IMG/VR virus record: IMGVR_UViG_2563366825_000027
Location: 1-15,180 of that record
DNA: 15,180 nucleotides
DNA from: a virus
Taxonomy: Duplodnaviria; Heunggongvirae; Uroviricota; Caudoviricetes
Reading direction: 5' to 3' (one strand)
A program made the position numbers and the translations under genes. This document shows positions 11,054 through 12,040 of this stretch, piece after piece (within the stretch, counting starts at the first letter, position 1; the number at the start of each line of letters is the position of its first letter). The notes under the pieces are model-generated. The model was given only the letters and a program-made list of their open reading frames with translations, did not search any database and was not told the DNA's origin.

Positions 11054-11968
11054 TCAGTAGCGATGCAGTGAAGGCGGCAACTCTTTGTTCTTAAGCCTTT
11101 CCCATGCCAGAAGGTTCGTCGGCCCGTCAGGCTCATAAATATCTATATCCCGCGTGTGATTAATTAAAACGCCCCTCGCCCTCCAGATGGTATACGAGAA
11201 CTCATAGCCGTAGTCGTGGCATATGCCGGAATAGCCAGACTGAATCAGTTTTAATGCGGGATACAACTCACGGAACAATGCCTGTGAGCGGTTAGCATAA
11301 TCCCATAGCCATACAAGGCTGTTTGCTTCTTTTGCGGAAAGCTCGTTGGTGCTCTTCTCTTGTTTGCCGATTAACTCTCCTTCAAGCGGAACGCGAGCAG
11401 CAAGTGACAGAGCTTCGGTAAACTGCTCCTCGCTGATTTCTCTGTACGAACATCCAAAATGTGATTTCAGTGACGACCACATGGTGATCATCGCCTTCGC
11501 CTGTTTTTCCTTTGGCAGAGACTGACCGCGACTCATGACGAGTTGTTTAATGGCTTCCTGCTGTTCAGTAGTGATTTTCCCCGGCAACGCCTTTTTAGCT
11601 TTCAGTGTATTTCCGTAAGACCCCGTTTTACGAATGGATGGCAAAACTTCAGCTGTCACCCATTTGCGGAATTTGTGCGGGACTGAACCTTTATTGACGG
11701 CATCGCGGCAACGCAGAACCAATGTATACATACCTGATTCGCTCACAATGCTTAAATTCTGCTCACCACCAAGGGTGTAACTTAAAGTTACTCCCTTTTC
11801 ATCGTCATCAAGTGCAGTAAGCGCCTTGCGTGAGTTAGTCAGATTTAAAGCATCACAAACATCTTTTGCTACAAACCACGGCTCACCGCACTTGTTGATG
11901 ACGCGGATTTCACTGTCGCCGAATTTGAAGATGGTGAAATCGTTTTGTGCCTTTGCTATACTTTTCAT
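11054..11968 (-). CDS. Bro-N domain antirepressor-like protein (Ant analogue)
   Basis: 304 aa; the N-terminus [47 protein letters not shown] matches the Bro-N pattern; the C-terminal domain is unassigned. It sits directly downstream of the Arc-like gene, as ant follows arc in P22 immI. SD AGGAAA is 7 nt upstream. Confidence 0.7.
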
Positions 11969-12040
11969 GTCAATATTTCCTAATCCGATTTGTTGATACC
12001 GAAGCCCTGACTGTTACAGCAGTTGGGGCTTCAACTTTTT
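11954..12040 (+). ncRNA. Candidate Sar-like antisense RNA covering the ant ribosome binding site
   Basis: Extended -10 TGcTATACT at 11954-11962 on the plus strand inside the 5' end of the Bro-N gene; a plus-oriented terminator (GAAGCCC 12001-12007 pairs with GGGCTTC 12026-12032, then T5 at 12036-12040). The predicted RNA of about 70 nt is antisense to the arc-ant junction, parallel to P22 sar. Not expression-verified. Confidence 0.35.

Follow-up and report, generated by a model that had tools for sequence, protein, structure and literature searches.

The stretch of DNA analysed here (the window; 15,180 nt, positions 1 to 15,180 of the IMG/VR virus record IMGVR_UViG_2563366825_000027, Caudoviricetes) contains an arc-like repressor gene followed on the same strand by ant, which encodes an antirepressor. 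An initial annotation had proposed a Sar-like antisense RNA across the junction of these two genes. We compared this junction with sar, the gene for a small antisense RNA in phage P22, and with its relatives in other phages and prophages.

The arc–ant junction and its predicted antisense RNA

The genes and elements that make up the junction are the following.

11968-11054, minus strand: ant, encoding a 304-amino-acid antirepressor with Bro-N (residues 20-110) and P22_AR_C (residues 204-276) domains (Pfam)
12171-12031, minus strand: arc-like repressor gene, 46 amino acids (Pfam Arc PF03869, E 5e-13)
11934-11939, plus strand: Psar −35-like hexamer GTGAAA, matching TTGACA at 4/6 positions, with a 17-nt spacer to the −10
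11954-11962, plus strand: Psar extended −10, TGCTATACT (TGc-TATACT), from a promoter scan; the same as the annotated P22 Psar −10
11969 to 12038-12040, plus strand: predicted sar RNA, 70-72 nt (from Rfam, our own covariance model and the P22 annotation)
11969-11997, plus strand: stem-loop 1, a 7-bp stem GUCAAUA/UGUUGAU whose loop carries the anti-Shine-Dalgarno (anti-SD) sequence UUUCCU (11976-11981)
12001-12040, plus strand: stem-loop 2, an intrinsic terminator made of a 14-bp hairpin (12001-12032) followed by T5 (12036-12040)
11966-11981, minus strand: the target, the ant translation initiation region, with the Shine-Dalgarno (SD) sequence AGGAAA at 11981-11976, a 7-nt spacer and ATG at 11968-11966

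The arc-like gene and ant belong to one operon, as in the P22-type immI module, and flank sar at the junction, where the initial annotation had placed it. The Ant protein matches PHROG 245 (anti-repressor Ant, E 6e-103), and the arc-like gene is an annotated coding sequence in phage PhiR12_1.

The Rfam model of sar, RF00262, matched 11970-12036 on the plus strand along its entire length (model positions 1-68/68). The match scored 69.4 bits, the gathering score being 43, with an E value of 6e-13 for the window as a whole. For comparison, the same model scored 97.8 bits for P22, 61.7 for Emek and 48.0 for SPN3UB. Scanning the whole window with Rfam at gathering thresholds gave two hits, one of them sar, and a covariance model of our own (described below) matched 11969-12038 with 96.2 bits. 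Two further Rfam candidates, ctRNA_pGA1 (27.2 bits) and DUF3800-VIII (20.1 bits), were rejected; both scored below their gathering scores and matched the terminator hairpin only.

The predicted RNA would start at G11969, which corresponds to nucleotide 1 of P22 sar, and probably ends inside the T-tract, at 12038-12040. Its length and position agree with the antisense transcript of about 70 nt predicted earlier: it begins beside the ant start codon and covers the whole ant SD, leaving the ATG just outside the complementary stretch, in the same register as in P22. The SD itself had been given as 11977-11982 and has to be moved by one position, AGGAAA being the complement of 11976-11981. The hairpin and T5 that the initial annotation placed at 12001-12040, overlapping the arc stop, were recovered by a terminator scan as a 14-bp hairpin, GAAGCCCTGACTGT-TACA-GCAGTTGGGGCTTC (7 of the 14 bp are G-C), followed by AACTTTTT; the stop codon TGA of the arc-like reading frame (12033-12031, minus strand) lies inside the base of the hairpin. 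The core of stem 1 is UCAAUA/UGUUGA, to which a closing G·U pair is added if the RNA starts at G11969. A 71-nt RNA from this locus folds at −28.3 kcal/mol (z = −5.8), a value that none of 200 shuffled sequences reached, and the two-hairpin shape of its minimum-free-energy structure is that of P22 sar.

The extended −10 also reads as reported, at 11954-11962 inside the 5′ end of the Bro-N gene, where it falls in codons 3-5 of ant, which read AGT ATA GCA on the minus strand. In the promoter scan, GTGAAA-17-TGcTATACT (11934-11962) gave 9/12 matches with the TG present. GTGAAA occupies the position of GTGTTA within the annotated P22 Psar, and the other types of this cassette carry nTGnnA-type hexamers at the same distance upstream of the −10. 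At the level of sequence, then, sar has its own −10 within the first ant codons, as far from the ant ATG as in P22.

We aligned the window with P22 and epsilon34, using the RefSeq annotation of P22 (locus coordinates):

682-710: P22 Psar
up to 716: P22 ant start codon, which ends here
717-786: P22 sar RNA
749-786: P22 sar terminator
785 onwards: P22 arc coding sequence, which begins here

The extended −10 stretch TTGCTATACT is identical in the window and P22, the CAT of the ant start codon stands in the same register so that both RNAs start one base beyond the ant ATG, and the terminator segment ACCGAAGCCCTGACTGTTAC.GCAGTTGGGGCTTCAACTTT differs in a single loop base only. When 11900-12300 was compared with phage records by a sensitive blastn search, the DNA similarity to P22 and its relatives extended over 11953-12038 only, that is, over the −10 plus sar; the arc and ant coding DNA beside it has diverged from P22 past DNA-level detection. 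The two RNAs belong to one covariance-model family, share the two hairpins with an anti-SD in loop 1, are flanked by arc, mnt and a P22_AR_C-type ant, and are of one length class (P22 sar is given as 68/69 nt in PMC12197685 and annotated as 70 nt in the P22 record). All six pairs of stem 1 are replaced relative to P22 (GUUGGU/ACUGAC), with pairing fully kept. The anti-SD is UUUCCU (SD AGGAAA) in the window and CUCC (SD GGAG) in P22, and the terminator tails are T5 and T3, respectively. Whereas sar in the window overlaps at its 3′ end the last three codons and the stop of the arc-like gene, P22 sar overlaps only 2 nt of the arc coding sequence (sar ends at 786, arc begins at 785). The proteins differ as well: Arc has 46 amino acids in the window and 53 in P22, and the N-terminal domain of Ant is Bro-N in the window and P22_AR_N in P22.

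Taken together, the Rfam match, the P22 alignment, the fold and the mnt/arc/ant arrangement agree with the earlier remark that position and length mirror P22 sar, and they lead us to regard 11969 to ~12040 (plus strand) as very probably a sar gene, a homologue of P22 sar and not merely a Sar-like element. The sar family has been known since 1987 and the stock Rfam model detects this copy, so it is an already known RNA; nevertheless, neither the closest phage records (PhiR12_1/4/5) nor the RefSeq chromosomes of E. coli with this copy annotate it.

Homologues and the ant leader

Homologues were collected by an exact-pattern scan of IMG/VR for the hairpin, which gave at least 120 loci, and further loci were fetched from phage and E. 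coli records. In all, sar is conserved in more than 100 phage loci. At least six types of stem-loop 1 occur among them (type A, P22; type B, this window; types C and D, IMG/VR loci; type E, Emek; type F, SPN3UB), all with the same two-hairpin shape and a pyrimidine-rich anti-SD in the first loop. Plain MAFFT alignments put the P22-type and window-type stem 1 out of register and were not used for pair counts. Our covariance model was instead built from seven in-register non-P22 types, and all sequences were aligned with Infernal. The model had hits in 75/75 sources searched, four of which (Klebsiella phage ST101-KPC2phi6.1, two E. coli prophages and Edwardsiella phage GF-2) score below the Rfam gathering score. 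In the alignment of 52 distinct rows, 97.4% of the cells form standard pairs and six pairs are changed on both sides, three per helix; stem-loop 1 has compensatory changes at 3/7 pairs across homologues. When the 3′ partners were slid by 1-3 columns as a control, pairing fell to 30-45%. The homologues thus share two stem-loops with covariation in both, the 3′ one being a rho-independent terminator.

The promoter is equally constant. The geometry TGC-TAnnnT-NNN-CAT is present in 75/75 homologues, in 74 directly and in GF-2 once the start of its hit, which is offset by 5 nt, is corrected. The −10 hexamers are TATACT (58), TAAGCT (8), TACACT (5), TAAACT (2), TACAAT (1) and TATAGT (1, read off the upstream sequence of GF-2); the TG never varies, nor do positions 1, 2 and 6 of the hexamer. 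This promoter overlaps coding sequence. Ant proteins start with M-x-[S/I]-[I/V/L]-A, after which P22 has the Pfam domain P22_AR_N, the window and SPN3UB have Bro-N and Emek has KilA-N, three N-terminal domains unrelated to one another; the C-terminal P22_AR_C is common to all four. Codon 4 is always NTA (ATA, GTA or TTA), even where the amino acid differs. A Psar-coding leader shared by three unrelated domains, together with the NTA codon, indicates therefore that codons 1-5 of ant behave like a piece of the sar cassette and not of a protein domain. As far as can be read from these comparisons, a promoter here constrains the start of a protein, the leader (11954-11968, minus strand) encoding the predicted extended −10 of Psar. 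An argument from codon usage in the single ant gene (ATA 3/17 Ile, AGT 4/26 Ser, GCA 9/23 Ala) was too weak alone, and we dropped it in favour of this cross-family comparison.

Among loci L001-L132, five ant-leader/stem-1 classes are combined with 14 arc 3′ classes in 33 ways, and the junction is always the same hairpin. As judged from these alleles, the sar cassette is the joint of a mosaic in which arc and ant genes are shuffled, and the combinations suggest that it mediates the shuffling of modules. In the pattern-collected set the terminator loop varies at two positions (UNCN: UCCC, UCCA, UACC, UACA, UGCU); the scan pattern allowed variation at these two positions only, so the invariance of the remaining hairpin is by construction. 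The two variable bases could tune specificity. The cassette measures ~85 bp and comprises the extended −10, the 5-codon ant leader, stem-loop 1 and the near-invariant terminator hairpin. Since the 3′ 39 nt of sar are common to all types sampled, the sar of one prophage could pair with the arc–ant junction RNA of another phage. That the cassette is a portable regulatory unit as well as a recombination joint, with such cross-phage pairing, is a speculative proposal that we consider rather unlikely; if true, it would mean cross-phage dampening of antirepressors between co-resident or superinfecting phages.

Type B, with its stem-loop 1 and the 5′ end of ant, also occurs in the E. coli P22-like phage Kapi1 and in lambda-like prophages of E. 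coli O157:H7. Over 11900-12040 the window is 96.5% identical to Kapi1 and, for the most part, 97-99% identical to E. coli chromosomes. Unlike the window, these Kapi1 and O157:H7 copies have other arc alleles on the right-hand side of the hairpin and different loop bases, the arc allele of the window being rarer. Some portion of 11900-12300, usually the 5′ end of ant together with sar, is matched in 478 of 5,426 complete E. coli genomes; at least 80% of it, with this arc allele, is covered in only 19 of them.

The immI module and its setting

The surrounding module and its neighbours are as follows.

12282-12530, plus strand: mnt-like ribbon-helix-helix repressor gene, 82 amino acids, with a Pfam Arc domain, divergent from arc
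12231-12204, minus strand: candidate Pant-type promoter TTGACT-16-TAGTAT (promoter scan), which would drive arc–ant and be convergent with Psar
12530-13066, plus strand: ClpP-fold open reading frame (ORF), stand-alone, 178 amino acids
13827-13123: tail gene L, lambda-type
10999-10262: tail gene K, lambda-type
9684-13827: span of the immI insertion plus its neighbours in the tail-gene cluster
5536-5822, minus strand: hok/sok-type toxin–antitoxin locus

The gene order is that of a P22-type immI, with divergent mnt and arc ribbon-helix-helix repressors and ant 3′ of arc. The mnt-like protein matches PHROG 2685 (E 1e-31), whose label 'partition protein ATPase' equals the product label on mnt in the P22 RefSeq record. 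By its likeness to P22 Pant, TTGACT-16-TAGTAT is a candidate for the arc–ant promoter. In P22, Psar is activated by transcription from Pant, a point that we do not use as evidence. The arc–mnt spacer (12184-12270) contains the direct repeat CTACAC(C/T/G)GTG in four copies, two of which are spaced by 21 bp, together with the palindrome CTACACTGTGTAG; one copy, CTACACCGTG, lies over the −10 of the minus-strand promoter. These repeats and the palindrome are putative Arc/Mnt operators, although the candidate operators in the spacer have no sequence similarity to the P22 operators.

The whole 'ant moron' (mnt-like gene, ClpP-like ORF, arc, sar and ant) sits between the lambda-type tail genes L and K, whereas P22 and P22-like podoviruses have it between gene 16 and the tailspike gene (PMC2629481). 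The L/K placement recurs in phage PhiR12_1, which is 99.6% identical over 11000-12600 and in which sar is unannotated. E. coli O157:H7 prophages use the same insertion site, as seen in strain JEONG-1266, in which the module is likewise between L and K. Homologues of L or K were present in only 7 of ~130 fetched sar loci, within fetched DNA of varying length.

Several further observations concern this region. The ant gene is itself mosaic: its 3′ ~600 bp (11054-11602), which encode the P22_AR_C half, share 86-91% identity with the ant of Stx-converting phages and of Salmonella phage UPF_BP1, and the Bro-N half, beyond 11602, has matches in few records only. The ATG of the ClpP-fold ORF overlaps the stop of the mnt-like gene (TAATG), and the ORF is therefore probably co-expressed with that gene from the prophage. 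It matches Pfam CLP_protease with 44.9 bits, falls below every NCBIfam cutoff, has a 'head maturation protease' as its nearest PHROG and accompanies the sar cassette in 27 of ~130 fetched loci. A PADLOC search of Ant and this ClpP-like neighbour gave no matches. Farther away, the hok/sok-type locus, flanked by tail gene J (9341-5874) and by a tail-fibre ORF with collagen repeats (5393-3891), comprises a match to Rfam sok (RF01794) at 5665-5822, barely over the gathering score (59.6 bits against 59), and a Hok-like ORF of 46 amino acids (MSQKPLKTTVICITVVLIIWITHSSLCEF...) at 5676-5536.

Alternative explanations and proposed function

Some of our observations weigh against a functional sar in the window. 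The −35 of Psar is weak (4/6), and in a 3-kb scan promoter-like sites occurred at chance frequency (3 seen, 3.9 expected), while terminator-like sites numbered 6 against 3.2 expected. The covariation alignment was fitted to the model structure, which biases the pair counts towards that structure, and most loci were collected via an exact hairpin match, so that the invariance of the hairpin is partly circular. The repressor that an Ant of this Bro-N type would inactivate lies outside the window. A literature search found no paper on sar expression from E. coli prophages, and a full-text search for 'RF00262' gave no result. By themselves, the promoter and terminator consensus matches are not above chance; their combination is highly non-random. 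A chance juxtaposition of promoter-like hexamers with a terminator-like hairpin, which the near-shuffled frequency of such matches in the 3-kb region would allow, is effectively refuted by the covariance-model E value, by base-for-base homology with an experimentally defined RNA gene and by conservation in the >100 phage loci, and we give it next to no weight.

The conserved segment could instead work in the arc–ant mRNA, as a stabilising or processing hairpin or a pause element, with the plus-strand promoter silent. It lies exactly between the two cistrons, and the minus strand can also fold the hairpin at 12001-12032 (−16.0 kcal/mol). However, the plus strand folds far better (−29.8 versus −18.6 kcal/mol for the whole structure) because five G·U pairs, three in the hairpin and two in stem 1, turn into A·C mismatches on the minus strand: stem-loop 1 falls from −6.3 to −0.6 kcal/mol, and stem-loop 2, owing to its three G·U pairs, from −22.0 to −16.0. 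The T-tract is 3′ of the hairpin on the plus strand only, a role confined to the mRNA leaves unexplained why TGC-TAnnnT is strictly kept 6-7 nt ahead of the RNA start in three coding contexts that are unrelated, and in P22 the plus-strand RNA has been demonstrated (PMC13397905). We thus regard such a role as highly improbable. That the ~40-bp hairpin is kept chiefly as a homologous-recombination linker for arc/ant shuffling, with sar as a passenger, likewise appears to us barely probable. It would account for the 33 combinations joined at one hairpin, yet a linker requires no strand-biased G·U pairing, T-tract or conserved promoter, and in more distant homologues (L129 from a Klebsiella phage, L130 and L131 from E. 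coli) the hairpin sequence is altered by compensatory substitutions that keep the structure and not the sequence. Besides, a recombination joint and a sar gene are not mutually exclusive and can coexist.

We therefore favour, with high confidence, the reading of the window sar as a cis-encoded antisense RNA of a P22 immI (mnt-arc-sar-ant) module in a lambda-like E. coli prophage. RNA polymerase would initiate at G11969 from the extended −10 (TGcTATACT) embedded in ant codons 3-5, and transcription would end at the 14-bp hairpin and T5 overlapping the arc stop codon. The RNA would fold into two hairpins, the first exposing UUUCCU, the complement of the ant SD, and pairing with the arc–ant mRNA across the whole intercistronic region would block the ant ribosome binding site. 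Antirepressor synthesis would thereby be limited post-transcriptionally, atop the repression of the arc–ant promoter by Arc and the Mnt-like repressor. Since promoter, start site, loop anti-SD, terminator and target SD are all present in the sequence, we have little doubt in assigning the P22 mechanism to this sar by analogy, transcription and Ant repression being inferred.

The CA RNA of phage N15 and the c4 RNAs of P1/P7 are processed from the 5′ leader of a same-strand operon transcript and act on upstream targets; they are not convergently transcribed, fully complementary cis-antisense RNAs. The Rfam scan at the sar locus gave no hit to CA or c4 RNAs, and there is no sequence or structure similarity. 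What N15 CA RNA (cited in PMC10732415) and the related c4 RNA have in common with sar is the principle of a small RNA that restrains an antirepressor as a post-transcriptional layer of immunity. In P22, sar base-pairs with the RNA between arc and ant, masks the ribosome binding site of ant and reduces Ant synthesis at the post-transcriptional level (PMC2629481, PMC7968456, PMC12197685); lysogeny is not properly established without it (PMC2629481, citing Liao et al. 1987 and Wu et al. 1987). Small-RNA sequencing detected sar reads in P22 infection (PMC13397905).

The finding matters mainly for annotation and opens no new biological question; a modest added interest lies in the comparative picture, in which a fixed leader of five codons is at once a promoter and the hairpin serves as a mosaic joint. 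By analogy with P22, the antirepressor of a lambda-like prophage would be under three-layer control, by the Mnt-like repressor, Arc and sar, which bears on predictions of how E. coli prophages are induced and behave in anti-immunity, among them the O157:H7 prophages with a type-B sar beside ant in their tail-gene cluster.
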